Assembly (NCBI GenBank): GCA_030429865.1
Contig: JAUIFX010000001.1
Coordinates: 2,190 to 66,189 of the forward strand
Source of the DNA: Gammaproteobacteria bacterium
GTDB taxonomy: Bacteria > Pseudomonadota > Gammaproteobacteria > Ga0077536
DNA length: 64,000 bases
Direction: 5' to 3'
The stretch's first letter is position 1; each line of letters starts with the position of its first letter. The notes under the pieces are model-generated. The model worked only from the letters and a program-made list of their open reading frames with translations, searched no databases and had not been told where the DNA came from. A program made the position numbers and the translations under genes. This document shows, one piece after another, positions 4,435-20,416 of this stretch.

Positions 4435-5031
4435 TCAGTCGTTGGTGGCGCGCGCGGCGTCCACGGCGTCCGGACGTTCGAGTCTCAGCGCCGAGACGTC
4501 GAAGCCCTGGCCACGGGCAACGTCGAGCAACCGCTCGTAGGTTTCGCGCGGGATGCGCGGGGTCCGCGCGAGCACCCACAGGTAGTCGCGGTCCGGCGCG
4601 CCGACCAGCACGGCGCTGTAGTCGGGCTCGAGGGCGAGGATCCAGTAATCGCCCCACACGAAGGGCAGGAAACCGAGCCAGGCCGGCGCAAAGCGCACCT
4701 CGAGACGCGCCGGGTCGTCGTACTCGGCGTTGAGACGGGCGACGCCTTCGGCGCGCTGTAGCGTGCCGCCCTCGTCACGGCAGGCATTGACCACGCGCAC
4801 GCGGCCATCGGGCAGCGGCGAGTACGTTGCCGTGGTTTCGGCCTCGCACATCGCCTGGAAGCGATTGGGCAGCAGCGCGATCTGGTGCCAGCGGCCCATG
4901 TAACGATCGAGATCGACGTCTTCGACCGTTTCGAGCGCAGCTGCCGCACCGCCGGCCGCAGCCGTGACGACCGAGAACAGCGCCATGAGCAGGGCGCACA
5001 GCGGGACCGCCGTGCGCGCCATGTCGCTCAT
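4435..5031 (-). CDS. blc: Bacterial lipocalin (Blc-like) outer-membrane lipoprotein
   Basis: 198 aa from MSDMARTAVPLCALL... (lipoprotein-type signal) with lipocalin core DLDRYMGRWHQIALLPNRFQ...GDYWILALEPDYSAVLVG...YLWVLARTP. ATG overlaps the stop of the upstream AOR gene (ATGA). The upstream 460 aa of the 658-aa track ORF is R-rich shadow. Confidence 0.75.
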   Translation of the reverse strand: MSDMARTAVPLCALLMALFSVVTAAAGGAAAALETVEDVDLDRYMGRWHQIALLPNRFQAMCEAETTATYSPLPDGRVRVVNACRDEGGTLQRAEGVARLNAEYDDPARLEVRFAPAWLGFLPFVWGDYWILALEPDYSAVLVGAPDRDYLWVLARTPRIPRETYERLLDVARGQGFDVSALRLERPDAVDAARATND

Positions 5032-6749
5032 GCGACGTGCTGCTGCCACCAGCGCCGCACCGAAGCGTTGACCTCGGCGGCGTGGAAGCGGGCCACCTTG
5101 TTGCTCGGTTCGAGGGCTTCCTCGTAGAAGAACTCGGGCAGCTCGTCGTCGGCCTCGGTAAAGCCGGCGTCCGCGTTGAACTGCGCCTCGAAGCGCAAGG
5201 TCTCGCGGCCCAGCTCGTAGAAGAAGGATGGTTCGAGCGACGTGCCCAGCGCATCGTTGAGCAAACCGACGATCATCTCGATGTTGGTGTTGGTCACCGA
5301 GCGGCCGAACACGCACAAGCCCAGCGAGTCGGCGGTCGCGCACACGGTCTGCATTTCCATGCTGACATCGACCAGCTCGTCGATGTCCTTGCCACTGCAC
5401 TCGTACTTGGCCGCGTTGCCGGTCGTGTGGTCGGCGCCCTGCGCGGTCACCATCATCGAAATGCCGGTGACCTCGATCACCCGCGGGTCGTAGGCGCTGA
5501 TGCCCTGGCGCTTGATGACCGGGGTACGCTTGACGCCGTAGTGCTCGCCGACGTGTGCCGTGCCGCACGCCCACAGGCGCCCCTGCTCGGAGCCGGCACG
5601 GATTTCGTCCAGCACCCCGGTCAGGAAAGCCACGTCGCCGAACCCGGCGAGACCGGCATCGAGCAGCACCCCCATCATCGCCCCGGTCTCGATGGTATCG
5701 ATGCCGAGGTCGTTGGCGTGCCAGTTGAGGCGTGCCAGGTCGTCGGGGTCGGTGAGACCGCAGTTCGTGCCCATCAGTCCCAGCGTCTCGTACTCGACCG
5801 GCGAGGCGATCTCCTCGCCCTGCTCGTCGACGTAGACGTTGGAGCATTCGATCATGCAGCCCGGCATGCAGGCGTGCGACGTCGTACCGCCGCGCGACAG
5901 ATTGCGTTCGCGGATGTGCTCGCCGCCCATCTTGAGCACCGCGCCGGCACCGCGCACCTGGGCGCCGGACGTGAAGTTGTTCACCGGCAGGCCGCCGACG
6001 TGGTTGGTGTAATCGGCCATCATCGCCGTGCCGTAGTCGCGCAGCGCGCCTACGGCCTCGTCGGCGCGCAGCTTCGCGCCGTATTCCTTGATGCCCTTGA
6101 GCAGCTTCTTGCGATCGTGGAAGGTCGGCATACGGTCCAGATCGACCACCACCGCCTTGACCTTCTTCGCGCCCATCACGGCGCCCACGCCGCCGCGCGC
6201 GGCGAGGCGCGTCGGCCGCTTGTCGGTATCGCTCATCGAGATGCCGGCAAGCAGGCCGCCGTACTCGCCGACCGGTCCGCAAATCGCCAGGCTGACCTTC
6301 TGCCCGTACTTCTCGTGCAGCATCGCCGCGGTCTCGAACGTACCCTTGCCGAGGTACTCGCTGCCGCTGTCCCACTCGATGCGCCCATCCTTGCACAGGT
6401 GAATGACGCACCAGTCCTCGGCGGCGCCGTAGAGCGTGAAGCCGGCGATCTCGAGCTGGCCCAACGCGAGGCCGAAGGAACCGCCGGCATTGGATTCCTT
6501 GACGCCGCCGGTGAGCGGGCTCTTGCAGCCGACGCTGGTGCGGTTGGCGTTGGAGAAATTACTGCCGGCAAACGGGCCGGCCGAAAAAATCAGCGGGTTG
6601 TCGGGACCCAGCGGGTCGACCTTGGCCGCGCCCAGCTCGTTGAGCGTCTTGGCGATGAAGTAACGCCCGGCACGCGCGATCTGCTCGCCGGAAAAAGTTT
6701 CCTCGCGAACGCTGCGCTGGGCGAGATCGATGTGGAAATACTTGCGCAT
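5028..6749 (-). CDS. Aldehyde:ferredoxin oxidoreductase family (tungsten/molybdopterin enzyme)
   Basis: 573 aa: MRKYFHIDLAQRSVREETF..., AOR N-terminal and catalytic-domain features including an iron-sulfur Cys cluster region (CMPGCMIECSNVYVD). Confidence 0.85.
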   Translation of the reverse strand: MRKYFHIDLAQRSVREETFSGEQIARAGRYFIAKTLNELGAAKVDPLGPDNPLIFSAGPFAGSNFSNANRTSVGCKSPLTGGVKESNAGGSFGLALGQLEIAGFTLYGAAEDWCVIHLCKDGRIEWDSGSEYLGKGTFETAAMLHEKYGQKVSLAICGPVGEYGGLLAGISMSDTDKRPTRLAARGGVGAVMGAKKVKAVVVDLDRMPTFHDRKKLLKGIKEYGAKLRADEAVGALRDYGTAMMADYTNHVGGLPVNNFTSGAQVRGAGAVLKMGGEHIRERNLSRGGTTSHACMPGCMIECSNVYVDEQGEEIASPVEYETLGLMGTNCGLTDPDDLARLNWHANDLGIDTIETGAMMGVLLDAGLAGFGDVAFLTGVLDEIRAGSEQGRLWACGTAHVGEHYGVKRTPVIKRQGISAYDPRVIEVTGISMMVTAQGADHTTGNAAKYECSGKDIDELVDVSMEMQTVCATADSLGLCVFGRSVTNTNIEMIVGLLNDALGTSLEPSFFYELGRETLRFEAQFNADAGFTEADDELPEFFYEEALEPSNKVARFHAAEVNASVRRWWQQHVA

Positions 6750-6915
6750 GACGTGTCCTTCCTGCGGCTGTTTCGCATGGCTCAGATGACGCGATTATAC
6801 CGGCCGCGGGGCATGCCGAGGGCATTTCCACAACACATGCACGGGTAACGCGCGGCGCCCGGCACGATCGGGTAGCATCGGGTTCCCGCCCAGGGATCGA
6901 CGAGGCTCAAGCCCC

Positions 6916-7785
6916 ATGAACACGGCCCACCCGGCTCCGAGCGAGCTGCCGGCATGGCTCTATTGGCAGGAAGCGGCGCCGATAGACAGCGTCGAAGCGC
7001 CCACGCGCGAAGCCTTCGTCGAGCGCTGGGGCGCGCCCGGCCTGCCGGTCAAGCTCGGCGGCCTGACCGACGCGTGGCCCGCCCGTGAACGCTGGTCGGT
7101 GGCCTTCTTCCGTCGCGAGCACGGCGCCTGTGACGTCACCGTCGAGGCGCGCGCTGCCGCCGGCGGTACGCGCAGTGTACGCCTCGCCGATTACCTGGCG
7201 ACACTCGACGGGCCGACGGGAAACGAGGCCTGGTACCTGAAGGACTGGGTCTTCCGCGAGCAGGCGCCGGCCCTCGCCGACGACTACCGCGTACCCGCCC
7301 AATTCCCGGACTATTTCGCCGAACTCGAGCCGGCGCTGCGCCCCGGTTACAGCTGGATCTACATCGGCCCCCGGGACTCCGCATCCAACTTCCACCGCGA
7401 CGTCGCCGGCACCAGCGCGTGGAACGCGCTGATCCGCGGCCGCAAGCTGTGGCTGTTCTTTGCGCCCGACGAACACGCCGCGGCCTACGACAACTCGCTC
7501 GACGCGTTCGTACGCGACCGCAGCCCGGATCCACGCCTCGCTGCGCGACGACCGCTCTACTGCATCCAGGAACCGGGCGAGATCGTATTCACACCGTCGC
7601 TGTGGTGGCACCAGGTCTACAATCTCGAGACGTCGATCGCCGTGACCGAGAACTTTGCCGACGACTGCAATCTCAAGCACGTGCTGCGCGGCTTGCGCGA
7701 GCGTCCCGAGGGCCGCCATACGGCACTTGCGCTGGCGCTGCTGGTCGGCTGCCGCCGCCCGCGCCCGATTGGAGCGCGGCAGTGA
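6916..7785 (+). CDS. JmjC/cupin-4-like hydroxylase-fold protein
   Basis: 289 aa with ...SWIYIGPRDSASNFHRDVAGTSAWNALIRGRKLWLFF...FTPSLWWHQVYNLETSIAVTENF, characteristic of the JmjC/cupin fold. Confidence 0.6.
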   Translation: MNTAHPAPSELPAWLYWQEAAPIDSVEAPTREAFVERWGAPGLPVKLGGLTDAWPARERWSVAFFRREHGACDVTVEARAAAGGTRSVRLADYLATLDGPTGNEAWYLKDWVFREQAPALADDYRVPAQFPDYFAELEPALRPGYSWIYIGPRDSASNFHRDVAGTSAWNALIRGRKLWLFFAPDEHAAAYDNSLDAFVRDRSPDPRLAARRPLYCIQEPGEIVFTPSLWWHQVYNLETSIAVTENFADDCNLKHVLRGLRERPEGRHTALALALLVGCRRPRPIGARQ

Positions 7786-7838: not shown

Positions 7839-8210
7839 GTGAGCAATTCCAACGACGATGACCGCACGGTCGTGGTGAACCCGGCCTCGCTGCCGCCGCG
7901 CGTGCCCGATGAGGATGACGACGCCACGCCGTCCGATCGCACCGTCATCATGAAACCGTCGCAGCGCGCGCGCGAGGCGGCCGCGGCGCTCAATGCCGAA
8001 CGCCGCCGGCAGGAAAAGGCGAGCGCGGCAGAAGCGGCGGGCGAGGCCGTCGACTTCGACGTCACCCAGGGCATCGTCGCCGAAACGCCGGACGACGCCG
8101 TCGCGCCGCCGCGGGCGGCGGGCGGCAAGGGCATGCCCTGGGTGTTCGGATTCGTCGTCGGCGCGGTCGTCATGATCGGCGTCATCGTCGCCGTGCTCGC
8201 ACTGCTCTGA
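7839..8210 (+). CDS. Hypothetical acidic protein with C-terminal transmembrane anchor
   Basis: GTG start; Asp/Glu-rich N-terminus; single C-terminal hydrophobic helix WVFGFVVGAVVMIGVIVAVLALL. Start codon uncertain. Confidence 0.35.
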   Translation: MSNSNDDDRTVVVNPASLPPRVPDEDDDATPSDRTVIMKPSQRAREAAAALNAERRRQEKASAAEAAGEAVDFDVTQGIVAETPDDAVAPPRAAGGKGMPWVFGFVVGAVVMIGVIVAVLALL

Positions 8211-8268
8211 ACACGCGCTCGCGACGACGGCCGGGCCACGCGGCATCCCGGGCGCACCTGCCGGTCCG

Positions 8269-9633
8269 ATGAGCGAGCGCCTGCGCCTGATTCCCAGTGC
8301 CGATGTCGCCACCCTGGGCGCACATTGCTACCTTTTCGATCGCGCCGCGCTGCACGAAAACGTGGTGTCGGTGCCGACCCAGCGCGTTTCGCAGCGCATG
8401 CGCGAGGTCGTGCGGCGCATCCGCGCCGCGTGGCCCGACCATGCGCCACACCCGTACGGCGCCTTCGAGGCCCTGTTCGACAGCGCGGCGGAACGCAACG
8501 TGCTGGCGCAGCTGGCGCGTGCCGGTTACCTCGAGGCGGTGCCGCCGGTGGCGCCGGCACCCGGCGGCACGGCGGCGCGGAGCGGACACGCGGAGACCGG
8601 CGAGGCCACCGATCCGGCGGCGCACTTCCGCGAACGTGTCCTGCGCCACTTCTTCAAGCGCCCCGCGTTCTTCCACCTGCCGGAACAGATCGATGACGAC
8701 GACTGTGACGTTGCGCTCGTCGGCGTGCCGATTTCCTCGACGCTGGTCTCGAGCGGCACCGTCGACGCGCCCGCACGCCTGCGCCGCGACAGCCAGCGCG
8801 CCGGCTTCTGGTTCGACTTCCATGCCGACGGCGTCTATACCGAGACCGGCTGCGACGACAGTCCGCCGCGCCTGATCTGCGCGGGGGTGCGCGCGAAGGA
8901 CTTTGGCGACATCGGCAGCGACTGCCGCACCGTCGGCGAACTGTTCGCCCACGCGCGGCAGCTCGTCGACACGCGGCTCGTCCCGCATGGCATCCGCCCG
9001 TTGTTCATCGGGGGCGATCACGCGGTGACGTTCCCGCTCGTCGATGCCTACCTCCATCACCACCCGGGACTCGTCCTGATCCATCTCGATGCGCACAACG
9101 ACCTCTTCTACACCGAGCGGGTCGAGTTCAACCATGCCGGCCCGGTGCACGGTTTGCTCGTCCACTCCGGGCTCGACAAAGTGCTCTCACTCGGACTGCG
9201 CACCATCGGGGATCCCCGCGTCGGCCCCTACAAGCGCCTGGCCGCGAGCGGTGCGCTGCGCGAACGCGCGCACCTCTACTCGCTGCGGGCACTGGAACGC
9301 TGGCTCGACCGGCCAAGCGAGTTCCAGGCCCACCTGCGCGAATGCATCGGCGTTGACCGGCCGTGTTACCTCACCATCGATCTCGACGTACTGTCGGCCG
9401 ACTGCATCGCCGGACAGCTGTCGACCCCGGCAGGTCCCGGGCTCGGCTGGCACCAGCTGCTCGAGATGGTCCGCCTGGTGACGGAGACCTTCGACGTCGT
9501 TGCCTGCGACGTCGTCGAATTCAACCCGGATCACAAGGATCGCCCGGTCGACGATGCGCGCGAGATGACCGTCCTGCTGCTCGAGCTGATCGACGGACTC
9601 GCGCGCTGCGCGCGGCGCATCGTGCCGCCCTGA
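8269..9633 (+). CDS. Arginase/agmatinase/formiminoglutamase (ureohydrolase) family protein with ~150-aa N-terminal extension; candidate peptide arginase
   Basis: Ureohydrolase metal-binding motifs GGDHAVTFPLV, HLDAHNDL, TIDLDVLSADCIAG. Sits directly upstream of the NHLP precursor. Peptide-arginase role is inferred from context (OspR-type enzymes). Confidence 0.8.
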   Translation: MSERLRLIPSADVATLGAHCYLFDRAALHENVVSVPTQRVSQRMREVVRRIRAAWPDHAPHPYGAFEALFDSAAERNVLAQLARAGYLEAVPPVAPAPGGTAARSGHAETGEATDPAAHFRERVLRHFFKRPAFFHLPEQIDDDDCDVALVGVPISSTLVSSGTVDAPARLRRDSQRAGFWFDFHADGVYTETGCDDSPPRLICAGVRAKDFGDIGSDCRTVGELFAHARQLVDTRLVPHGIRPLFIGGDHAVTFPLVDAYLHHHPGLVLIHLDAHNDLFYTERVEFNHAGPVHGLLVHSGLDKVLSLGLRTIGDPRVGPYKRLAASGALRERAHLYSLRALERWLDRPSEFQAHLRECIGVDRPCYLTIDLDVLSADCIAGQLSTPAGPGLGWHQLLEMVRLVTETFDVVACDVVEFNPDHKDRPVDDAREMTVLLLELIDGLARCARRIVPP

Positions 9634-9963: not shown

Positions 9964-10338
9964 ATGGCTCAATCACTCCAGCAAGTAGCCGAGCGCATTC
10001 ACAAGGTGAAAGAGGAAGTGGCCGTCCAGGCAGTCCAGGACGACGACTTCCGCGAAGCCCTGATGAGCAACCCGACTGCCGCCCTGTGCGAAGAGTACGG
10101 CCTCGAGCCGAGCTTCTTCGAGAACATCTCGGTGCGCGTCGAGGTCGAGAACCCGAACGAAGTGGTCATCGTGATCCCGGCCGAGGCGGCCGAGGAAGAA
10201 CTCAGCGACGAGCAGCTCGAGGCAGTCGCCGGAGGCGCCGCCTTCATCGCCGGTGTTGCGGCCGGTGCCGCGGTCATCAGCGCTGCCGCCGCTGCGGGGA
10301 CCATCGTGCAGAACACCCGCGCGGGACGCCGCTGGTAA
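9964..10338 (+). CDS. NHLP (nitrile hydratase leader peptide) family RiPP precursor
   Basis: 124 aa. Leader ...NPTAALCEEYGLEPSFFENISVRVEVENPNEVVIVIPAEAAEEELSDEQLEAVAGG matches the NHLP consensus, including the LSDEELEAVAGG double-Gly cleavage motif. Core AAFIAGVAAGAAVISAAAAAGTIVQNTRAGRRW. Strong SD (GAGGGAG) 7 nt upstream. Confidence 0.85.
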   Translation: MAQSLQQVAERIHKVKEEVAVQAVQDDDFREALMSNPTAALCEEYGLEPSFFENISVRVEVENPNEVVIVIPAEAAEEELSDEQLEAVAGGAAFIAGVAAGAAVISAAAAAGTIVQNTRAGRRW

Positions 10339-10430
10339 GCAACCAGGGACGCGCCGCCGGTTCCTGCTCACCCCGTCTCTCCAGGCATGGCGTGACGCGG
10401 CGAGGCGCGCGGCGAACGGCGCTACCAAGC

Positions 10431-10461
10431 GCCGGCGGCGGGCAGGAGGCCCGCCGCCGGC
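10431..10461 (+). terminator. Perfect 12-bp GC stem-loop downstream of the precursor gene (putative attenuator/partial terminator)
   Basis: gccggcggcggg-caggagg-cccgccgccggc, perfect inverted repeat with 7-nt loop, followed by GGUGAUGAUUUCCU. Lies between the precursor stop (10338) and the next ORF. Confidence 0.4.
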
Positions 10462-10493
10462 GGTGATGATTTCCTGAGCACGAGGCGCCTCGG

Positions 10494-10688
10494 ATGAGCC
10501 TGCGACCCCATAAACGCAACCGGATCCTGGCGCTTGCCTTCCTCGCGCTCGGCCTCACGTTCGCGGCGCTTGCCCTGGCCGGAGGCGAAGCACGACTGAC
10601 CCTGGGTCTGGCGGCGCTGACCAACCTGCTCGCGGCATTCGTGTTCTACCAGCAGCAGCGCGGCCGGGACGACTCGGGGGCCGACTAG
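10494..10688 (+). CDS. Small membrane protein (64 aa, two predicted TM helices)
   Basis: MSLRPHKRNRILALAFLALGLTFAALALAGG...LAALTNLLAAFVFYQQQRGRDDSGAD. Hydrophobic; immunity or accessory role is speculative. Confidence 0.35.
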   Translation: MSLRPHKRNRILALAFLALGLTFAALALAGGEARLTLGLAALTNLLAAFVFYQQQRGRDDSGAD

Positions 10689-10983
10689 ACCGTCCGCGCG
10701 CGCCGCGCGCCGCTCCGCGAGACCCGACGATGACTGCTTTCGCGCCCGACGCCGGGGCCTGCCGCTGGTCGACGCGCTGGCGTTGCCGTGCGCCAGGGCC
10801 TGCACCGTCAGCCCGGCGCGGGCGGGCCGCGGTGCATCACGGAGACCGTATGCCGAAACCATCGGGCGCCAGCACCGGCGTCGCGCGCAGGATTCCCCGG
10901 GTGCGCGCCGTGCCGCCCGGCTGCCCGCCAGCGAGCCGCCGGCACGCTTCGGCCGCCGCGCGCGGCTGGACGACCCGGGCCGC

Positions 10984-12162
10984 ATGAGCGGCTTGGACTC
11001 CGGGCGCCGGACTGCCGTCGACGCGCGCAGTCCGCACGACTTCAGCGTGGCCGACTACCTGCGCCCCCTCGCACGCGACCTGCCGCCAGCGCTGGTCGCG
11101 GCCGCGGCGCGCGATGCGATCATCGACCTCGCCGCGCAGCTGCCGGGCGCGATCACGAGCTTCTGCGGCTTCGAATGTCCACTCGGCAGCGTCGAGGCCC
11201 GCGCCGACTTCCTGCTCTGCAGCACGCGCGAAGAAGGCCATGCCAGCGTGCTCGCGGGTACGCACGGCGAGAGCGCACTCGCGCCCGCGCTGCGCGCGCT
11301 GCCGGCCTGGCAGCGCGTCGCGGAATTCTCCCGCGCATGGCTCGGCGGGGATGGCCTGCTTGCCGACCACCTCATGAACACCTGGCTCGAGTTCGACATC
11401 GGCCGCGACGCCGAGGCGCTCGCCGCGCCGAGCATGTTCTTCGGCACCCACCCTCCGCCGCCCGGCGCCGCTTCGCGCGCCCAGCTCGATGTCCTGCTCG
11501 CGGCACTGGCCGTGCTCGATCCGCCGGCCGTGCTGGGTCACCGTCGGCGCGCACTGGAAGCCCTGCTGGGAGCACTGCCGCCGGGCTGTCACGTGTTCCA
11601 GGTCGGTGCGATGTGGTCACGCGGTCAAGCGGCGGTACGGCTGTGCCTGCGCGGCGTCGAGCGTTCGGCCGTACCGTCCCTGCTCGGCGCGCTCGACTGG
11701 CCGGGATGCCGTGAAGACGTCGCCGTCCTGCTCGACACCGTGGGCGCACACGCGAGCCGCGTCGACGTCGATCTCGATCTCGGTGACCAGGTCGGTCCCA
11801 AGCTCGGCCTCGAGTGTTACTTCGGTACGGATGCCGGCAACGCCGCACGCCTCGCCGCGCTGACCGCGGCGCTCGTGCGCCACGGCGCGTGCACGCCGGC
11901 CGAGGCCGCGGCGCTCGATGCCTACCAGGGACTGACCCTGCAGGATGCCGCCCCGGCCGACTGGCCGCCTCATCTCGCCGCGCTCGCGCGTGCCGGCGGC
12001 CGCGGGCTGAGCAGCGCGCTGTGCCGCTGGGTGCACCACGTCAAGCTCGTGCACGAACCCGGCGCGGCACTGAGCGCGAAAGCCTACCTCGCCGTCGAGC
12101 ATCACCTGCTGGACCGGCGCCAGCTGCGCGCGCACATCGACGCCATGCGCAGCGGCGCCTGA
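10984..12162 (+). CDS. Hypothetical protein (392 aa), first gene of the translationally coupled modification operon
   Basis: Internal ATG (MSGLDSGRRTAV...) chosen because the upstream part of the track ORF (from 10783) is R-rich. No family recognised. Stop lies 6 nt before the halogenase start. Confidence 0.5.
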   Translation: MSGLDSGRRTAVDARSPHDFSVADYLRPLARDLPPALVAAAARDAIIDLAAQLPGAITSFCGFECPLGSVEARADFLLCSTREEGHASVLAGTHGESALAPALRALPAWQRVAEFSRAWLGGDGLLADHLMNTWLEFDIGRDAEALAAPSMFFGTHPPPPGAASRAQLDVLLAALAVLDPPAVLGHRRRALEALLGALPPGCHVFQVGAMWSRGQAAVRLCLRGVERSAVPSLLGALDWPGCREDVAVLLDTVGAHASRVDVDLDLGDQVGPKLGLECYFGTDAGNAARLAALTAALVRHGACTPAEAAALDAYQGLTLQDAAPADWPPHLAALARAGGRGLSSALCRWVHHVKLVHEPGAALSAKAYLAVEHHLLDRRQLRAHIDAMRSGA

Positions 12163-12168
12163 TCCCCG

Positions 12169-14727
12169 ATGCACGGCCCTTCCCCCGAGTACGACCTGGT
12201 CGTCGCCGGCGGCGGCCCCGCCGGCACCACGCTCGCCACGCTGGTCGCACGTGGCGGCCATCGTGTCCTGCTGCTCGAAGCAAACCGCTTTCCCCGCTAC
12301 CAGATCGGCGAGTCCCTGCTGCCGGCGACCTTCAACGGCCTGTTCCCGCTGCTCGGTATCGACGCCGACCCCGGCCGGCTGGGCGCACCGGTGCTCAAGC
12401 GGGGAGCGACGTTTCACTGGGGGCGCGACGACGACCTGTGGACGATGAACTTCGGCGGCGCGCCGGACGACACCGAACCCGCGCCCGACTGGCCGACGGC
12501 GTTCAACGTGCGCCGCGAGGTCTTCGACGACGTGCTGCTGGGCGCCGCCCGCGCGGCCGGTGTCGAGGTCCGCGAGGGCGCCCGCGTCACCGCTATCGAC
12601 GCCGACGGGGAACGCGTGCGCGGCGTCGAGGTGGGCAGCGACGACGGCACCCGCTGGCACGCGCGCGGCCGCTTCGTCGCCGGCGCAACCGGCCAGGGCT
12701 GTCCACTCGCGGCGCACGTCGGCACGCGCCAACCCTCGGTGTTCTTCCGCAACGCCTCGGTCTTCGGCTACTTCCATGGCGGCGCACGCCTGCCGGGCGC
12801 GCTCGCCGGCAACGTGCTGCTGGAAGCCTTCGACCAAGGCTGGGCGTGGTACATCCCGCTCAACGACGAACTGACGAGCGTCGGCGTGGTGCTGCATCAC
12901 CCGCACACGCAGCGTCTCGGCGGCGACCGCGAGGCCGCGTTCCGCGACAGCCTCGCGCGCTGCACCTACATCGACGGCTACCTGCGCGGAGCGCGTCGTG
13001 CCACCACGCCGCCCTACGCCGGGCTGCGCGTGCGTTCGGAGTTCTCCTACACGCACGCGCGCTTCTGGCGCGCAGGTGCGCTGCTGGTCGGCGACAGCGC
13101 CTGCTTCGTCGACGTGATTCTCTCCTCGGGCGTACACCTGGCGACGTTCGGTGCACTGCAGGCGGCGCGCGCTCTCAACGCCGTGCTCGACGGCGAATTG
13201 CCCGAGCGCCTCGCGCTCAACGAGTTCGAGCTGCGCTACCGTCTCGAGTTCACCCGCTTCTACCAGGGGCTGCTCGGCCTGCACGACATGGCCCACGATG
13301 GCGCCACCTACCGCGAATGGCTGCGCGGGATGCTGCGGCGTACCCAGGGCGTCTACCTCGACGACGCGGCGGCGCCGCCGGCGCAGCGCCGCCGCACCTG
13401 GCAGGCGCTGGCATGGCTGCGCAAGCAGAACGCGCAGCTGGTGGCGTCGACCGCGCCGCCCGCAATGGATGCCGCGGCCGCGCTGCCCGCGATCGCCGGT
13501 GAGCTGCTCGTGCATGCCGATGGACTGCGCTTCGCGCGCGCCGCCGAACAGACCGATGCCGGCGACGCGCCCGATCCGCGGGTCGACACGCCGCTCTACG
13601 ATTACGGCAAGCTGCACGCCAGCGCCGCTCCCTACCTGCAGGCCTGTCCCGACGGCGTCGACGGTGCGCTCGCGCTGGTCACGGCCGCGCGCAGCCGTGG
13701 CATCCACCTGCGCGTACGCGGCAGCGGGCACACCTTCAGCGGCGCGAGCCTGCCGCGCGAAGGCGAGGTGCTGGTGCGTACCAACGGCCTCGATCACTAT
13801 CACTTCCACGCGCCTGGCCGGCTCGTCGCCGGCGCCGGCGCCATGGTCTGGGACATCCGCGATCTCGCCCGCGACCACGGCTTCGACCTGCCCGTCTATA
13901 ACGGCGGTTGGGCCGGACCGACCCTCGGTGGCTACATCTGCGCCGGCGGGTTCGGCAAGAGCGGCCTGTCGGAGGATGCCGGCGGGCTGTGGGAGAACAT
14001 CTATGCCGTGCGTCTCGTCGACGGGCATGGGACGCTGCGCACGATCACGCGCGACGACGACGCCTTCCCGTGGCTGTTCGGCAGCTCCGGCCAGCTCGGC
14101 CTGCTGGTCGATGCCGAGCTGCGCCTGGTGCCGTACGCCGATGCCACGGGCGCGCCGCGCTACCCGGTCGATGAACGTGGCCGCGTACCGCGCCGCCAGG
14201 TCGATGACCCGCGCCTCAACGACGTCGCGCCACGGCCCGACGACGACAAGCGGCTGTTCTGGTTCACCTTGCTGGTGTCACCGGCGGAGGAAGCCGACGC
14301 CTGGGCCGGCCTCGAGCAGCTCGTCCTCGATCACCGCGACGTGCTCGTGCCGGATGGCGGCTGGGCCGGCCCGCAACTCGACGGTGCGCCGATCGGCTAC
14401 CGCTACGTGATCCGTTTCCACGAGTTCAACCCGCCGCTGGTCTACCCGCGCGCCGAGACGTTCCTGTGCATCGGCGTGATGAGCCTGCTCGCCAGTGGCG
14501 ATGCCGGGAGCGATGCGCGGCTGCGTGCGATCGAGCGCGATTTCGTCGCACTCGCGCGGACGCGCCGGCTGCGCCTGTACCTGCAGGCGGAAAACATCAC
14601 CGGGCAGGTAGACCAGCGCCGTTATTACGGGCGTGCGACCTGGGAACGCTTTCTCGAACTCAAACGCGACTTCGACCCCGCGGCGCTGTTCAATCGCGAC
14701 GTCGTCTTCCCTCCCGATGCGCTATGA
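12169..14727 (+). CDS. Fusion protein: flavin-dependent (tryptophan-type) halogenase N-terminal domain plus FAD-linked oxidase (PCMH-type FAD-binding) C-terminal domain
   Basis: N-terminus DLVVAGGGPAGTTLA (GxGxxG), GESLLP, and the halogenase signature WxWxIP (FDQGWAWYIPL). C-terminal half has RVRGSGHTFSGASL FAD-binding motif and oxidase-like body. Single uninterrupted 852-aa ORF. Confidence 0.8.
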   Translation: MHGPSPEYDLVVAGGGPAGTTLATLVARGGHRVLLLEANRFPRYQIGESLLPATFNGLFPLLGIDADPGRLGAPVLKRGATFHWGRDDDLWTMNFGGAPDDTEPAPDWPTAFNVRREVFDDVLLGAARAAGVEVREGARVTAIDADGERVRGVEVGSDDGTRWHARGRFVAGATGQGCPLAAHVGTRQPSVFFRNASVFGYFHGGARLPGALAGNVLLEAFDQGWAWYIPLNDELTSVGVVLHHPHTQRLGGDREAAFRDSLARCTYIDGYLRGARRATTPPYAGLRVRSEFSYTHARFWRAGALLVGDSACFVDVILSSGVHLATFGALQAARALNAVLDGELPERLALNEFELRYRLEFTRFYQGLLGLHDMAHDGATYREWLRGMLRRTQGVYLDDAAAPPAQRRRTWQALAWLRKQNAQLVASTAPPAMDAAAALPAIAGELLVHADGLRFARAAEQTDAGDAPDPRVDTPLYDYGKLHASAAPYLQACPDGVDGALALVTAARSRGIHLRVRGSGHTFSGASLPREGEVLVRTNGLDHYHFHAPGRLVAGAGAMVWDIRDLARDHGFDLPVYNGGWAGPTLGGYICAGGFGKSGLSEDAGGLWENIYAVRLVDGHGTLRTITRDDDAFPWLFGSSGQLGLLVDAELRLVPYADATGAPRYPVDERGRVPRRQVDDPRLNDVAPRPDDDKRLFWFTLLVSPAEEADAWAGLEQLVLDHRDVLVPDGGWAGPQLDGAPIGYRYVIRFHEFNPPLVYPRAETFLCIGVMSLLASGDAGSDARLRAIERDFVALARTRRLRLYLQAENITGQVDQRRYYGRATWERFLELKRDFDPAALFNRDVVFPPDAL

Positions 14728-16195
14728 CCCGAACCTGCCGCGGGCCGTGTTTCTGGGCCCCTCTTTCGCGCCCGCCGCGGCGGCCAGGCTGCTGCCCGCG
14801 AACTACTATCCACCGGTGCGCATGGGTGACGTCTATCGCCTGCTCGCCAGCGGCGTCGAGACCATCGTCATCATCGACGGCGTGTTCCACCAGAGCACGC
14901 CGGTATGGCAGCGCGAGATCCTCGCCGCGCTGGAAGCCGGTATCCGCGTCGTCGGCGGTGCCAGCATGGGCGCGCTGCGCGCCGCCGAACTCGCGCCCTA
15001 CGGCATGGAAGGCATCGGTACGATCTACGGCTGGTACCGCGATGGCGTGATCGATGGCGACGACGAGGTCGCGCTGGTCCACGCCGACGCCGAGCTCGAG
15101 TACCAGGCGCTGTCGGAGCCGCTCGTCAACATGCGCTACAATCTGGCGCGCGCGCGCGCGAACGCCGTCATCGACGCCGCCGCGCACGACGCGTTGTTGG
15201 CCGCGGCGCAACAGCGCTGCTTCACCGAGCGCAGCTGGCGCCGCCTCGAAGCGGCGCCCGCCTGGCAGGCTCTGGCGCCTGCGCGCCGCGCGGCGCTTGC
15301 CGCCTTCCTTGCGAACGATTATGTCGATCTCAAGCACGCCGACGCGCGAGCCGTGCTCGAACACGTGCGCCGCAGCACCGCAGACAGCCGTTCCGCGCTA
15401 CGCCCGCGCAGCCGGTGGTCGTATCCCGGCAGCGCCCGCGTACGTCTGCAGGCCGCGCTGGCGCCGGACGGCAGCCTGGTCGACGGCGCCACCGTGCTCA
15501 CCAGGGCACTCGCGGCCGACGACGCCTGGGTCGCTCCCTGTCTGCGCGAGGCGCACGCGCGCTGCTACCTCGAGGACTGGCTCGAGCGCTGCGCCGCGAT
15601 GCCGCCGGCGGAGACGCTGGCGCCGTTCCTGGCCAGGGTGACGCCTGCGCAGGCAAGCGGTGACGCAGCCGCGTTCGCGCGCGCCAACGGCCTGACCCGC
15701 GACGAACTCGACGCCGCGCTCGCGGCGCGTGCACGCCATGCCTGGCTGCTGGCCGGGGAAAGCGCCATGCCCGGGACGGACGACGCCGCGCACGACGCCC
15801 TCCTCGCCGCCCTCGGCGAGACGGCGGCGAGCGCGCGCGCGGCGGCACGCCGCGACGCCTGCCTCGCCGCCTGGGCGCGCCGGCGCGGCATCAGCTGCCC
15901 CGCAGCCGAGCACGACCGGCGCGCGCCGCACTGGTGTGCCGCGCACGGACTGTCCGCGGCGGCAGTCGACGCCGATGCGCGTCTCGCGCGCGCCCTCGCC
16001 GAACGGGTCCTTGCCGCCTGGCTGCTCGACCAGGAACCGGCACACTTCGGTTTCGAACGTTTCTCTGCCGACGCCGAGCTGCTGCTCGCGCTCAAGCTCG
16101 ATGGCCGCCACGCGGCGCTCGTCGCCGACCTGACCGGCGTGCGTGCCGCACCGGCACCACCGCACAAGGACAGCAGCGCCGCGGGGGCCGCATGA
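14717..16195 (+). CDS. tfuA: TfuA-like protein (YcaO partner for thioamidation) with long Ala-rich C-terminal extension
   Basis: N-terminal ~230 aa match the TfuA core (VFLGPSFA...GDVYRLL...IVIIDGVFHQSTPVWQREILAALEAGIRVVGGASMGALRAAEL...GIGTIYGWYRDGVIDGDDEVALVH). Overlaps the halogenase stop by 11 nt and the ycaO start by 4 nt (ATGA). Confidence 0.75.
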   Translation: MRYDPNLPRAVFLGPSFAPAAAARLLPANYYPPVRMGDVYRLLASGVETIVIIDGVFHQSTPVWQREILAALEAGIRVVGGASMGALRAAELAPYGMEGIGTIYGWYRDGVIDGDDEVALVHADAELEYQALSEPLVNMRYNLARARANAVIDAAAHDALLAAAQQRCFTERSWRRLEAAPAWQALAPARRAALAAFLANDYVDLKHADARAVLEHVRRSTADSRSALRPRSRWSYPGSARVRLQAALAPDGSLVDGATVLTRALAADDAWVAPCLREAHARCYLEDWLERCAAMPPAETLAPFLARVTPAQASGDAAAFARANGLTRDELDAALAARARHAWLLAGESAMPGTDDAAHDALLAALGETAASARAAARRDACLAAWARRRGISCPAAEHDRRAPHWCAAHGLSAAAVDADARLARALAERVLAAWLLDQEPAHFGFERFSADAELLLALKLDGRHAALVADLTGVRAAPAPPHKDSSAAGAA

Positions 16196-17358
16196 ACCAC
16201 GCCTTCGCCTACACGCGCGGCACCTACCGTATTGCGACCCCGCAGGCCACGCTGGCGCGCATCGCGCCGCTGCTGCCGGCATGCGGCATCACGCGCGTCA
16301 CCGCGGTCACCCACCTCGATCGCCTCGGCGTGCCGGTTTACTGCGCGATCCGCCCGAACGGCGTCGTCCTGCAGGTCTCCAACGGCAAGGGTCTGAGCGC
16401 CGACTGCGCGCGCGTCTCGGCGCTGATGGAAGCGATCGAGCTGCACCACGCCGAGAACCCGCCGCCAGGCGCGCTGCGCGAAGCCACCCAGGCCGAACTC
16501 GAAGCCGCCGGCGAACGCGTGCTCGCGCCGCCGGCCCTGCCCGGCTACAACGGGGCCTACTTCGCGCGGGACTTCCGCCTGGAATGGATCCGAGGAACGG
16601 CGCTGGATGACGGCGCCGCCGCCTGGGCCCCGGCCAGCCTGGCCTGCTTCGCGCGCTCGCCGGCACCGCTCGTCACCGACACCAACGGCCTGGCCTCCGG
16701 CAATCACCTGCTCGAAGCGAGCCTGCACGCGCTCTACGAGCTGCTCGAGCGCGACGCCCTGGCCGGTCTCGGGCAGGATGGCCGGCTCGCCATCCGCGAA
16801 CGCTGCCGCGTCGTCGACACCGCTTCGATCACCGATACCGATCTGCACGCGCTGATCGCCGCCATCGCCGCGCGCGAGAGCCACGTCGTGCTGCTGTGGG
16901 TGCCGAGCCGCGTCCCGGTGCACACGTTCTGGGCGGTACTGCTCAACCGCCGCAGCGGCGCGGCACCGGTATCGACGCTCAACCTGGGCGCCGGCTGCCA
17001 CCACGACCCGAAGGTCGCCGCGGCGCGTGCCGTGACCGAGGCGGCACAGTCGCGCCTGAGCTTCATCCATGGCGCGCGCGAGGATCGCGTTGCCAAGCCC
17101 GTCGACCGCGCGCGCGCGGTTTCGGAAAGCCCCGCCTATCGCTATTTCGATGGCCTCGAGGCCGACACCGCGTGGCACGAGCTGCTGCCTGCCGCGCATT
17201 TGCCCGGCGATCTCGAGCAGGCGCACGACTGGCTGGTCACGGCTTTGTCGGGCACCGGCATCCGCGCGTGGCGCTTCGACCTCACCCGCGCCGAACTCGG
17301 TATCCCGGTAGTCAAAGTCGTCGCGCCCGGCCTCGCCTTCAATGGACGCCTGCTGTGA
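16192..17358 (+). CDS. ycaO: YcaO domain protein (ATP-dependent backbone amide activation; thioamide or azoline forming)
   Basis: MNHAFAYTRGTYR...; YcaO ATP-binding motifs SALMEAIELHHAE and LHALYELLERDAL (ExxERD), GLASGN. Internal ATG coupled to the tfuA stop. Confidence 0.85.
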   Translation: MNHAFAYTRGTYRIATPQATLARIAPLLPACGITRVTAVTHLDRLGVPVYCAIRPNGVVLQVSNGKGLSADCARVSALMEAIELHHAENPPPGALREATQAELEAAGERVLAPPALPGYNGAYFARDFRLEWIRGTALDDGAAAWAPASLACFARSPAPLVTDTNGLASGNHLLEASLHALYELLERDALAGLGQDGRLAIRERCRVVDTASITDTDLHALIAAIAARESHVVLLWVPSRVPVHTFWAVLLNRRSGAAPVSTLNLGAGCHHDPKVAAARAVTEAAQSRLSFIHGAREDRVAKPVDRARAVSESPAYRYFDGLEADTAWHELLPAAHLPGDLEQAHDWLVTALSGTGIRAWRFDLTRAELGIPVVKVVAPGLAFNGRLL

Positions 17359-18133
17359 ACGCGGCGCACGCAAGACCGTCGTGACGGCGACACCCGCGAA
17401 CGCCCTGGTCAGCCGCGCCGCGGTGCTCGACGAGGCTGCCTGCGCGGCCATCGCCCAACGCGTGCACGCCCTGCGCGCGCACTGGGTCGCGCGCGACGCG
17501 GCCGCCTTCCACACGCTCGGCGCCGCGCTCTACCTCGACCGTCCGACGGCCGCGACGCGTGAACGCTTCGGTCTCGCCGATGCCGACCCGGCGCGCTACG
17601 GCACGCTCGCCCGCGCGACGAACACCCTGCTCGAAGCCGGCTTCGCCGAGCTCTACGCCGCCTTCGCCGACGCGCTCGCCGGCCTGCTCGATGCCGACGT
17701 ACGCTACGCGGCCGACCGCGCCCGCCCCGGCTTCCACGTCTTCGAGCACCACCCTTCCTACGCCCGGCAGTCCGCGCACGTGCCCCATTTCGACCGGCAG
17801 TACGAGTGCATCGACTGGCCGCAGGCGGCAACCATCGACTTCACGGCGGCGATCTCGATCACGCTGCCGATCCGTTTGCCGGCGCGTGGTGGCGGGCTGC
17901 GCGTGTGGGAGCTGAACCTGTTCGACGTACAGGCGCTGGGTCCCGCCGCGGCGCGCGAACGCGCGCGCCGGGCGCCCTCGCGCGTACATCGCTACGTGCC
18001 GGGTGAACTGGTCTGCCACCGCGGCCACCTCCTGCACCAGATCCAGCCCTGGCCCTCGCGGCCCGGCGACGAGCGCATCACGCTGCAGGCGCACGGCCTG
18101 TTCTACGACGGTGCCTGGCAACTCTACTGGTAG
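17342..18133 (+). CDS. Putative Fe(II)/2-oxoglutarate-dependent oxygenase-like protein
   Basis: Candidate HxD...H facial triad (HVPHFD ... CHRGHLLH). Overlaps the ycaO stop by 17 nt, so last gene of the coupled operon. Family assignment weak. Confidence 0.4.
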   Translation: MDACCERGARKTVVTATPANALVSRAAVLDEAACAAIAQRVHALRAHWVARDAAAFHTLGAALYLDRPTAATRERFGLADADPARYGTLARATNTLLEAGFAELYAAFADALAGLLDADVRYAADRARPGFHVFEHHPSYARQSAHVPHFDRQYECIDWPQAATIDFTAAISITLPIRLPARGGGLRVWELNLFDVQALGPAAARERARRAPSRVHRYVPGELVCHRGHLLHQIQPWPSRPGDERITLQAHGLFYDGAWQLYW

Positions 18134-18169: not shown

Positions 18170-20185
18170 CTAGCGCAGCCCGGCGAAGAACGCGGGTGGG
18201 GGCACATCGCCGGCCAGCCTCAGCAGAAGCCGCTCGCCCGCCGCGCGCGTATCGAGTTCGAGTTCACCACGGCGCCCGTCGCCGTCGGCACGCACGCGCA
18301 GGCTGACGTGGCGCCCCGCGTCGTGCAGCGCGGTGACCACGGTCCAATCCGCCGGGGCCGGGGGCGGCGGCGCCTCCGGATCGCAGGACTCGCGCACCAG
18401 CGAGAGCGCCGTGATACCTGCGGCGAGACGGTCGAGCAGCGCCTGGTCGGTGCCCGGCAGGGCGACCCGGGTGACCGTCGCCGAGAGGGCCTGGCCGAGT
18501 TCCGGGGCGGTCAGCTCGACGCGCTCGGCGCGTGCGTGGCGCAGCGCGAGCAGGCGCACGAGACCGTTGACGAAAGCCGAGGCGCGCAGCGTCATGGGCA
18601 GCCCCGCATGCCGATCGAGGCTCTCGATGGCCGCGCTCAGCGCGTGCTCGACACTGAGCAGGCGGCGCGCCGTCGGCCCGAAGGCGTGCGCACGAGTCAG
18701 CTCGCGAAAGCGCGCGAGGTCGAAACCAAGCGATGCCAGGGGCGCTGCAGCGTCGTTGAGCCGCGCCAGCGCGGCGCCTTCGCCGAGGGCCCCCGCCGTG
18801 TAGTCATCCATCACGTCGCAGGCCGCGGTCAGCACCGGCAGCACCGTCTCCTCGCCGGCGATGCACGCACCCGCGGCCAGCGCCTCCTGCGCCGCTGCCC
18901 AGGCGCCGGCGTCGTCGCGCTCGAGCGCGGCCAGCGAGGGCACCACCTGGGCCAGGCTGAGCTGCTCGACCAGGCTCCACGCGGCCAGCCACCAGTCGGT
19001 CAGGGCAGCGCTGCGGAAGCCGCCGTAGCTGCCGTGCACGAGGTGGTCGTGGACCTGGACCAGGCTGTGCTGCAGGCGCGCGACCGGCGCGAAGCGCGCG
19101 GTCGAGAAATCGCCGGCAGCCCGCGCCTCGAGCAGGCAGCCGGCGAGCAGGTGCAGACTCTGGAACGTGTTGAGCAGGCCACGCGAGTAGAGCGCATCGA
19201 CGTTGCCGGCCGGCGCGCCGAGCAGGCACACGCGCTCACCGACGACCCCCGCCGGCACGGTTCTGGCCCCGCGACTGCTCATCCACGGCCGCACCGGCGC
19301 GGCCTTGCCGAACTGCGCGGCCAGCGCCGGGTAACGCGCCAGCAGCGCGGACCACTCTTCGCCCGGCGACGCATCCCCCGGCGGGTGCACGCGGTTGTCG
19401 AAATTGACGCCGACGCTGACCAGGCGGTTGCGCGAGCGCGGGTGGTTGCCGAACGGGATCACCCACATCCAGGCGCCGTCGAGGATGTGATGCAGGGTGC
19501 CGTGGTGCCAGGGCAAGGCCGGCGGCGGCGCGGCGGCGCAGTCGTCGAAGGGCCGCACGCCGGTGAGGTGGGTGAAGATCACGCGCGAATCGGTCCGCAG
19601 CGGCGCCGTGCCCAGCGCCGCGACCCGCGGCAGCGTGGCGCCGTGACCGACGCAGTCGACGAGGTAACGGCCGTGCACGCGCCCGGCGCTGGTCGCGAGG
19701 CAGACGCCATCGTCCGCCACCGCTTCCTCGCCGCGGATTTCCGCCGTCAGCAGGGTGCAGCCGGCCTCGACGGCGCGCGCGCACAGCCAGGCATCGATGT
19801 CCTGGCGATACAAGTGCGCCTCGAGCACGTCCTCGGCGTAATTGACGGCGATATTGGCCCACCACTGCGCCTCGGTACGGGCGCTGCCGGCGGCATGGCG
19901 CACGAAGCCGAAGGACTTCTTAACCCCGGAGCTGGGCCCGATCTCGTCGTGGATGCGGTTCAGGTTGGCGATCGCGGCCAGTTCCTCCGCGCCGTAGCGC
20001 TCGGCCAGCACGCGCATCCACAGCACGGTCGGCTTGAGCAGGGATTCGCCGAGCGCGAAGCGCGGGTGCGGCGCCCGCTCGACGATCACGGTCGAGACCC
20101 CCTGGCGCGCAAGCACCAGTCCGAGCGCGCAACCGGTGATGCCGGCACCAAGAATGATGACCTCGCAGGACGCCGCTTCCATCAT
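18170..20185 (-). CDS. Flavin-dependent halogenase (second copy) with ~250-aa C-terminal extension
   Basis: MMEAASCEVIILGAGITGCALG (GxGxxG), GESLLKPT, and WxWxIP signature (GAWMWVIPF). ATG at 20185 chosen over the upstream GTG at 20224. Confidence 0.8.
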   Translation of the reverse strand: MMEAASCEVIILGAGITGCALGLVLARQGVSTVIVERAPHPRFALGESLLKPTVLWMRVLAERYGAEELAAIANLNRIHDEIGPSSGVKKSFGFVRHAAGSARTEAQWWANIAVNYAEDVLEAHLYRQDIDAWLCARAVEAGCTLLTAEIRGEEAVADDGVCLATSAGRVHGRYLVDCVGHGATLPRVAALGTAPLRTDSRVIFTHLTGVRPFDDCAAAPPPALPWHHGTLHHILDGAWMWVIPFGNHPRSRNRLVSVGVNFDNRVHPPGDASPGEEWSALLARYPALAAQFGKAAPVRPWMSSRGARTVPAGVVGERVCLLGAPAGNVDALYSRGLLNTFQSLHLLAGCLLEARAAGDFSTARFAPVARLQHSLVQVHDHLVHGSYGGFRSAALTDWWLAAWSLVEQLSLAQVVPSLAALERDDAGAWAAAQEALAAGACIAGEETVLPVLTAACDVMDDYTAGALGEGAALARLNDAAAPLASLGFDLARFRELTRAHAFGPTARRLLSVEHALSAAIESLDRHAGLPMTLRASAFVNGLVRLLALRHARAERVELTAPELGQALSATVTRVALPGTDQALLDRLAAGITALSLVRESCDPEAPPPPAPADWTVVTALHDAGRHVSLRVRADGDGRRGELELDTRAAGERLLLRLAGDVPPPAFFAGLR

Positions 20186-20264
20186 GTTTCCGAGAGTATT
20201 GCCGCGCGCCAGTATCCGGGGCACCGTGCGCGAATGCCAGTGCCGTGAGCAGACCCGATCGAGA

Positions 20265-20310
20265 TTGCCGGATATTCCTATAATGCAGTTTAAGTAATTT
20301 TCGAAACTGC
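20265..20310. promoter_or_regulatory. AT-rich divergent promoter island with consensus TATAAT and a 7-bp inverted repeat
   Basis: Local AT-rich patch ~20270-20345 in a ~70% GC background. TATAAT at 20279-20284 (+). Inverted repeat GCAGTTT(20285-91)/AAACTGC(20304-10). Lies between the divergent halogenase and cNMP-binding/export genes. Confidence 0.35.
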
Positions 20311-20416
20311 TTGTTTTATTTGATACATCGCGTATCGTAAATCATCCTGCGCGAGCCTCGTGAAGGCGCACCACGCGCGCTGTGCGGCCACTGCCAACGA
20401 CAACCGGGGAGCGTCC

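Follow-up and report, generated by a model that had tools for sequence, protein, structure and literature searches.

A putative peptide halogenase of the PltM/CtcP type with a family-specific tail domain in a RiPP gene cluster of marine and uncultured Gammaproteobacteria

Results

The window analysed here, a 64,000-nucleotide stretch of contig JAUIFX010000001.1 from a gammaproteobacterial assembly (GCA_030429865.1), includes a complete gene for a 671-amino acid (aa) flavin-dependent halogenase (FDH) at positions 18170..20185 on the minus strand, referred to below as the long halogenase. The protein is almost certainly a member of the PltM/CtcP clade, and it lies among genes for a peptide that is made on ribosomes and modified post-translationally (RiPP), a pathway that it very probably serves. 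On balance, we favour the interpretation that it is a peptide halogenase dedicated to this pathway, acting most likely on a C-terminal Trp, and that a tail domain and a Lys or Arg at position 51 (K/R51) adapt a PltM/CtcP-type enzyme to a peptide. The clade, the intact motifs, the domain architecture and the synteny were read directly from the sequences and predicted models.

Clade and catalytic motifs

In a phmmer search against PDB chains, the long halogenase matched CtcP (E = 6.7e-75) and PltM (E = 8e-67), both over residues 8–461, and all other halogenases were found at E = 4e-9 or weaker. CndH gave only a distant match (E = 0.064), and no MibH chain was among the matches at E ≤ 1. An AlphaFold2 model built from a 33-sequence alignment had a predicted local distance difference test (pLDDT) score of 91 and a predicted template modelling (pTM) score of 0.89. 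Its best Foldseek matches were likewise CtcP (TMt 0.82–0.85) and PltM (TMt 0.86–0.89), with ~500–570 columns aligned. The flavin adenine dinucleotide (FAD)-binding halogenase core defined by these three approaches occupies residues 1–395 (19001..20185, minus strand).

The core includes, all on the minus strand, a GxGxxG dinucleotide-binding motif (GAGITG, residues 13–18; 20132..20149) and a WxWxIP motif (WMWVIP, residues 239–244; 19454..19471), both seen in the sequence and in alignments, as well as DALYSRG at residues 330–336. K89 (19919..19921) aligns with CtcP K98 and PltM K87 in the phmmer alignment. Both of these have been named as catalytic lysines (PMC12400496), and the K87A variant of PltM is inactive (PMC6424973). 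No variation in K89, WxWxIPF or D-x-L-x-SRG occurs among 33 tail-bearing homologues, nor in a 20-sequence alignment that mixes long and short homologues. An earlier note on this DNA had described the protein as a second flavin-dependent halogenase and had named loss of the catalytic Lys or conserved motifs as the sign of a pseudo-enzyme. K89 is present and every motif is intact, and the pseudo-enzyme reading was rejected for the window protein. Judged by its motifs, the long halogenase is apparently catalytically competent. The same note had also called for a check of a catalytic Glu, which is a feature of tryptophan halogenases. As Glu is not among the defining residues reported for PltM or CtcP (PMC6424973, PMC12400496), its absence would be uninformative.

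Family profiles are less specific. Pfam assigns generic FAD-binding domains to the window protein, and FAD_binding_3 alone passes the threshold. Some homologues have precomputed matches to PF04820 (Trp_halogenase), often faint. The top NCBIfam match is QhpG, at a weak E = 1.2e-11, with a score of 44 bits where the cut-off is 240.

In Halioglobus-type long halogenases (P0016–P0031, for example at 10001–12085 of locus L003), GGSxSA replaces GxGxxG, with K89 and WxWxIP retained. These members may bind FAD weakly or in an unusual way.

The C-terminal region and residue 51

Residues 396–554 (18524..19000, minus strand) form an all-helical region rich in Ala (25%) and Leu (16%) that phmmer, AlphaFold2 and Foldseek equate with the substrate-cleft region of PltM and CtcP. 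This helical C-terminal region forms the cleft at residues 390–502 of PltM (PMC6424973), and in CtcP the cleft region at residues 407–516 is followed by a lid hairpin at 517–555 (PMC12400496). Residues 555–671 (18173..18523, minus strand) constitute a family-specific α/β tail domain, delimited by predicted models and profile searches, with a predicted β-α-α-β5-α topology and a six-stranded sheet. Modelled in isolation, the tail is still predicted confidently (pLDDT 89). The earlier note had described a C-terminal extension of ~250 aa; its Ala/Leu-rich part is real, but only the last ~117 aa exceed PltM and CtcP, and residues ~396–554 are no add-on. The note's proposal that the extension might include a RiPP recognition element (RRE) with a winged helix-turn-helix fold did not hold up. 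Because Pfam gave no PqqD match to the window protein and the predicted six-stranded α/β topology is wrong for this fold, the tail, as modelled, is not a winged-helix RRE.

The weak top matches of the tail are PsbP, Mog1, DcrB and the Eag/SciW chaperones, a likeness that is one of shared fold class at most. A tail profile searched against 1.84 billion representative proteins returned 12 matches; nine are members or fragments of this halogenase family, and the other three are repetitive, low-scoring proteins. Thus, occurrence of the tail elsewhere in nature was rejected, as no relative outside the halogenase family was found among these representatives. The possibility that the tail is a domain common to other enzymes of the cluster was also discarded, as a hidden Markov model of the tail matched only halogenases among all open reading frames (ORFs) of the window and of loci L001–L003. 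Since the tail is exclusive to the RiPP cluster described below, a role in peptide recognition is plausible, and we propose tentatively, at somewhat less than even chances, that it is a peptide-recognition module.

Outside the tail, position 51 also distinguishes the family. K51 (20033..20035, minus strand; local sequence GESLLKPT) is Lys or Arg in 33/33 tail-bearing homologues, and T, A, P or G is found at this position in the short CtcP-like ones. According to the alignment, it lies in a loop that corresponds to I59-G60-Q61 of CtcP, which lines the substrate pocket (PMC12400496).

Distribution and synteny

The full architecture is shared by ~34 proteins of 668–720 aa, nearly all from metagenomes or gammaproteobacterial metagenome-assembled genomes, together with Halioglobus sp. 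HI00S01, the only genome of a named strain in which the cluster was found. Among the best 80 matches from 185,579 GTDB species genomes, a full-length match was found at only two loci. The gene order of the window recurs in L001, L002 and L006, and Halioglobus (L003), L004, L005 and a JGI contig have the same gene set at a halogenase identity of just 36–40%. In a tblastn matrix, genes for TfuA, YcaO, a 245-aa oxygenase and a 387-aa protein were all present at 6/6 independent tail-bearing loci, and none of the four was detected at any of 77 loci with short CtcP-like halogenases (0/77; Fisher p = 2.6e-9). Short relatives in a RiPP context were thus sought and not found among these 77 loci. The cluster at these 6/6 loci also includes a precursor with a nitrile hydratase leader peptide (NHLP) and bacteriocin exporters. 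The membership of the long halogenase in the RiPP cluster, asserted in the earlier note, is therefore supported by the same gene set in all tail-bearing loci.

The cluster looks like a rare, uncharacterised RiPP family of marine and uncultured Gammaproteobacteria, and literature searches turned up no account of such a cluster or of a RiPP halogenase from the PltM clade. The record for L007/L002 (CAZKRY010000012.1) is labelled 'uncultured Klebsiella sp.', and its cluster proteins are 47–84% identical to those of the window, whose G+C content is ~70%; the Klebsiella label looks wrong.

The precursor peptide

The presumed substrate is an NHLP-type precursor encoded at 9964..10338 on the plus strand (TIGR03793, E = 2.3e-16). 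Its leader ends in LSDEQL-EAVA-GG, which fits an LxxxxL-x4-GG arrangement, and the core that follows the GG site is AAFIAGVAAGAAVISAAAAAGTIVQNTRAGRRW. As claimed in the earlier note, AAFIAGVAAGAAVISAAAAAGTIVQNTRAGRRW has exactly one Trp. This Trp proved to be its last residue. A C-terminal Trp is found in 8/8 precursors from six loci, and core position 3 is aromatic in all eight (Phe, once Trp), with mid-core sequences that vary widely, one being Pro-rich and one Gly/Ala-rich. The suggestion in the note that targets may include other residues is not favoured by this comparison, in which the C-terminal Trp is the sole invariant electron-rich residue. The CndH-like halogenase of the window cluster (see below) is absent from L003 and the JGI locus, and thus the long enzyme is the only halogenase there, with the C-terminal Trp still kept. 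We consider the chances evenly balanced that the C-terminal Trp is the halogenation site.

L004 encodes a second NHLP precursor (10754–11122) with a wholly different, Pro-rich core (SIWIGPCGPLGPIIPRLPRIPIPIPGGRIPRPW) that retains both a C-terminal Trp and a Trp at core position 3.

Reading frame and orientation of the long halogenase gene

The minus-strand frame is open over 18170..20224, with the stop codon at 18170–18172. The ATG at 20185 is taken as the start, and the N-termini of homologues align there. The codon-position G+C content of 0.74/0.53/0.87, with its strong third-position bias in a window of ~70% G+C, indicates a real gene. An exact-sequence look-up of the 671-aa protein returned no record. 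Together with the intact motifs, the second halogenase and the single-Trp core, the frame and codon bias bear out the earlier observation as a whole.

The note had correctly described the gene as divergently oriented. It lies on the strand opposite to all neighbours, being convergent with the gene at 17342–18133 and divergent from the cyclic nucleotide (cNMP)-binding/export operon that begins at 20360. Because its orthologues in L003, L004, L005 and the JGI locus are co-directional with the tfuA and ycaO genes, the orientation in the window is a lineage-specific inversion. The inversion places the gene behind an intergenic stretch at 20225..20340, between the halogenase and the divergent operon, that is markedly A+T-rich within this window. 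The stretch is a probable shared promoter or regulatory region, and a scan for sigma-70 consensus promoters and terminators around the long halogenase gene, including 20225–20340, gave no site.

Other genes of the cluster

The surrounding genes constitute a RiPP cluster for a modified, antibacterial-type peptide. Those found around the long halogenase encode JmjC and arginase-family proteins, the NHLP precursor, a small membrane protein, the 387-aa protein, a CndH-like halogenase fused to a vanillyl-alcohol oxidase (VAO)-type domain, TfuA, YcaO and a 263-aa protein. The export side includes genes for a cNMP-binding bacteriocin transport protein, HlyD, C39-ABC, ABC and TolC-like proteins.

The first halogenase (12169..14727, plus strand; match to PDB 3e1t, E = 4.5e-103) is a CndH-like FDH fused to a VAO/p-cresol methylhydroxylase (PCMH)-type FAD_binding_4 domain, with the motifs GGGPAG, K77 and WAWYIP. 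Thus, the cluster does encode two WxWxIP halogenases, as noted earlier (WAWYIP here, WMWVIP in the long halogenase), and their different clades, CndH-like and PltM/CtcP-like, are compatible with the idea of two halogenation events or specificities. The CndH-like halogenase and FAD_binding_4 parts are separate genes in L005, and Halioglobus (L003) and the JGI locus have the FAD_binding_4 protein alone, with no CndH-like part.

TfuA (14633–16195) and YcaO (15934–17358), both on the plus strand, form a putative backbone-activation pair (14633..17358), whose overlap stems from the mechanical ORF limits used. YcaO itself probably starts further downstream, because orthologues are ~387–400 aa long. 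The presence of TfuA as the partner of YcaO suggests thioamide chemistry. In all copies TfuA is 470–520 aa long, with a Pfam TfuA-like domain that spans just ~120 residues (89–208) and a long Ala-rich C-terminal half that has no family match. ThiS- and ThiF-like genes are located beside the Halioglobus cluster (L003 4029–5382), with none seen near the window cluster; their products could be sulfur donors for TfuA-YcaO thioamidation.

The 263-aa protein (17342..18133, plus strand) is a candidate WelO5-like iron/2-oxoglutarate (Fe/2OG) oxygenase, identified through Pfam matches of orthologues and alignment. Two of five orthologues match the WelO5 family (best E = 1.5e-6), and the window protein itself has no Pfam match. 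H149-x-D151...H232, a hydroxylase-type Fe/2OG triad, is invariant in the protein and its orthologues. The oxygenase gene (263 or 245 aa) adjoins that of the long halogenase wherever both are called; in L003, L005 and the JGI locus the 245-aa version is directly upstream, overlapping or abutting, and in L004 it was found by tblastn.

The 387-aa protein (10999–12162, plus strand) is encoded in every cluster copy at 34–62% identity and has no Pfam or PDB relative, even with a profile search. A JmjC/cupin hydroxylase and an arginase-family protein (6790–7785 and 8176–9633, plus strand) are products of separate genes in the window and in L002. In L003, L004 and the JGI locus a single fusion protein of 770–870 aa combines the two, which suggests that they act jointly on the Arg-rich ...TRAGRRW end of the precursor. 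A small two-helix membrane protein of 59–73 aa, conserved between loci and encoded just after the precursor (10470–10688 on the plus strand of the window; 19272–19478 in L001; 8389–8568 in L004), may be an immunity protein. A gene for an aldehyde:ferredoxin oxidoreductase (5028–6794, minus strand) adjoins the window cluster. The distant JGI copy likewise has such a gene next to it, which may not be due to chance.

Discussion

On the most economical reading of these data, the conserved enzyme with which the pathway halogenates its peptide is the long halogenase, and the target is the terminal Trp. A halogenase of the PltM/CtcP clade, dependent on FADH2, O2 and halide, would have been recruited into a RiPP pathway built on an NHLP-leader precursor, with backbone chemistry by TfuA-YcaO, oxygenases, a peptide arginase paired with JmjC, and export through C39-ABC/HlyD/TolC. 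The flavin, reduced by a reductase of the host, would react with O2 and a halide, the choice of which is conjectural, to yield hypohalous acid, which would be led past the WxWxIP wall to K89. The ring most likely to be attacked would be that of the invariant C-terminal Trp, possibly once it has been oxidised by the adjacent Fe/2OG oxygenase. The tail (residues 555–671) would hold the LxxxxL segment of the leader or the hydrophobic core, with K/R51 as a possible partner of the carboxylate that is free at the C-terminus. Together, they would let a cleft of the small-molecule type take a peptide end. A bolder form of this proposal, which we regard as rather unlikely, is that the enzyme is the first peptide-modifying PltM/CtcP member, in which a 117-aa non-RRE, distantly PsbP/Eag-like recognition module of a kind not described before grips the leader or core and K/R51 anchors the Trp carboxylate, so that a C-terminal residue is halogenated site-specifically, and that the product belongs to a new family of thioamide-containing bacteriocins.

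Several points weigh against a peptide-halogenase role. The CndH-like halogenase of the window cluster could equally be the Trp halogenase, since the active site of this variant is open and suits substrates tethered to a protein. In the cluster no flavin reductase is evident, PF04820 gives no match to the window protein at E ≤ 1, and GxGxxG is degenerate (GGSxSA) in the distant Halioglobus-type members. The tail is without a confident structural relative, its proposed role being drawn from distribution only, and the whole family is known from sequence alone. The characterised enzymes of the PltM/CtcP clade act on phenolic small molecules; the pocket of PltM cannot hold halogenated L-Trp (PMC6424973), and that of CtcP is small and closed (PMC12400496).

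The last of these points would be met if the long halogenase acted not on native Trp but on a phenol-like ring made on the peptide by another enzyme of the cluster, such as hydroxy-Trp or a hydroxylated aromatic residue at position 3 produced by the WelO5-like Fe/2OG oxygenase, the JmjC enzyme or the CndH/QhpG-like flavoprotein. The chemistry of the clade, whose characterised relatives are phenolic halogenases (PMC6424973; PMC12400496), would then be retained. The aromatic residue at core position 3 of every precursor fits this explanation, as does the HxD...H oxygenase gene, which in L003, L005 and the JGI locus is directly upstream of that of the halogenase and is also present in L004. However, Fe/2OG enzymes usually hydroxylate aliphatic carbons rather than aromatic rings. 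The likeness to WelO5 is weak, at best E = 1.5e-6 in two of five orthologues and none in the window protein, indole itself is already reactive to flavin-dependent halogenases, and the order of reactions is not fixed by the data. We consider this explanation unlikely.

Action on a small molecule that is free and has no relation to the peptide, with the tail serving as a lid or oligomerisation element, would agree with the substrates of every characterised clade member and with the unique C-terminal hairpin of CtcP, which influences dimerisation and lies over the substrate cleft (PMC12400496). It is made quite improbable by the strict synteny with RiPP genes across loci down to 36% identity, by the lack of the tail at all 77 non-RiPP loci, and by the lack of conserved small-molecule biosynthetic genes beside the long halogenase. 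The weak QhpG match, the best in NCBIfam, and the generic FAD-binding domains that are all that Pfam detects could point to a flavin monooxygenase, such as a hydroxylase of peptidyl-Trp akin to QhpG, LodB or GoxB. WxWxIP and the catalytic Lys separate halogenases from monooxygenases. Both are invariant here, and the nearest relatives in sequence and fold are proven halogenases, which leaves a monooxygenase very improbable. Finally, the degenerate GxGxxG of some distant members and the weak resemblance of the tail to Eag/SciW chaperones, binders of hydrophobic helices, might indicate a catalytically dead protein whose role, as a scaffold or chaperone, is to present the hydrophobic core peptide to other enzymes. 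This is hardly credible for the window protein, in which every catalytic motif is intact, and K89 and WxWxIP are invariant even where GxGxxG is degenerate.

The preferred interpretation, a peptide halogenase, would be of practical interest. The published peptide halogenases considered here (MibH, SrpI, MppI and ChlH) form a small group of the tryptophan-halogenase type, and such enzymes are sought as tools to label peptides and proteins site-selectively, for example by bromination followed by Suzuki or Sonogashira coupling. If the interpretation is correct, a peptide-directed member of the PltM/CtcP clade, which is versatile in its halides (PltM chlorinates, brominates and iodinates), would widen this toolbox, especially with a portable recognition domain, and would show that small-molecule halogenases have been adapted to ribosomal peptides by a second and independent route. 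The cluster unites an NHLP precursor, TfuA-YcaO, two halogenases, an Fe/2OG oxygenase, an arginase/JmjC pair and a VAO-type oxidase, and the long halogenase is a good genome-mining lead.

Comparison with known systems

SrpI provides a precedent. Encoded in a YcaO cluster, it adds bromine to the Trp at the C-terminus of an NHLP precursor, in a leader-dependent reaction in which LxxxxL-x4-GG is recognised and no RRE is involved (PMC10286304, PMC10858898). Like SrpI, a proteusin C-terminal Trp 6-brominase, the long halogenase is an FDH encoded beside an NHLP precursor and YcaO, with a Trp-ended precursor, an LxxxxL-x4-GG leader and no RRE. SrpI is taken to be of the tryptophan-halogenase type, because it was discovered with MibH as the search hook (PMC12615548). 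By description, this would set it apart from the PltM/CtcP-type long halogenase. Further, the YcaO partner of SrpI makes thiazolines, whereas the YcaO of the window is paired with TfuA.

MibH, MppI and ChlH, tryptophan halogenases of lanthipeptides and lasso peptides, carry out flavin-dependent halogenation of peptidyl-Trp within a RiPP pathway, as is proposed for the long halogenase. They differ in belonging to another FDH clade and other RiPP classes; MibH is leader-independent, and none of the three is known to carry a domain like the tail. The PqqD-like RRE is also a small domain appended to RiPP-modifying enzymes, but it consists of three strands and three helices, whereas the tail is six-stranded. 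CndH, the chondrochloren halogenase (PDB 3e1t), shares the catalytic Lys and WxWxIP with the long halogenase and is nearer to the first halogenase of the cluster.

The nearest systems by both sequence and fold are CtcP, the tetracycline 7-halogenase (PDB 7v0b, 7xgb), and PltM, the phloroglucinol halogenase (PDB 6bza). The FAD-binding core, the Lys position, WxWxIPF and the helical C-terminal cleft region are common to all three. The long halogenase is distinguished by ~117 extra residues as an α/β domain and by Lys or Arg at position 51, and it is encoded in a RiPP cluster with a presumed peptide substrate, whereas CtcP and PltM serve polyketide or phloroglucinol pathways and act on phenolic small molecules. 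Thus, the enzyme chemistry and fold are known, and the appended domain and the pathway context are new.

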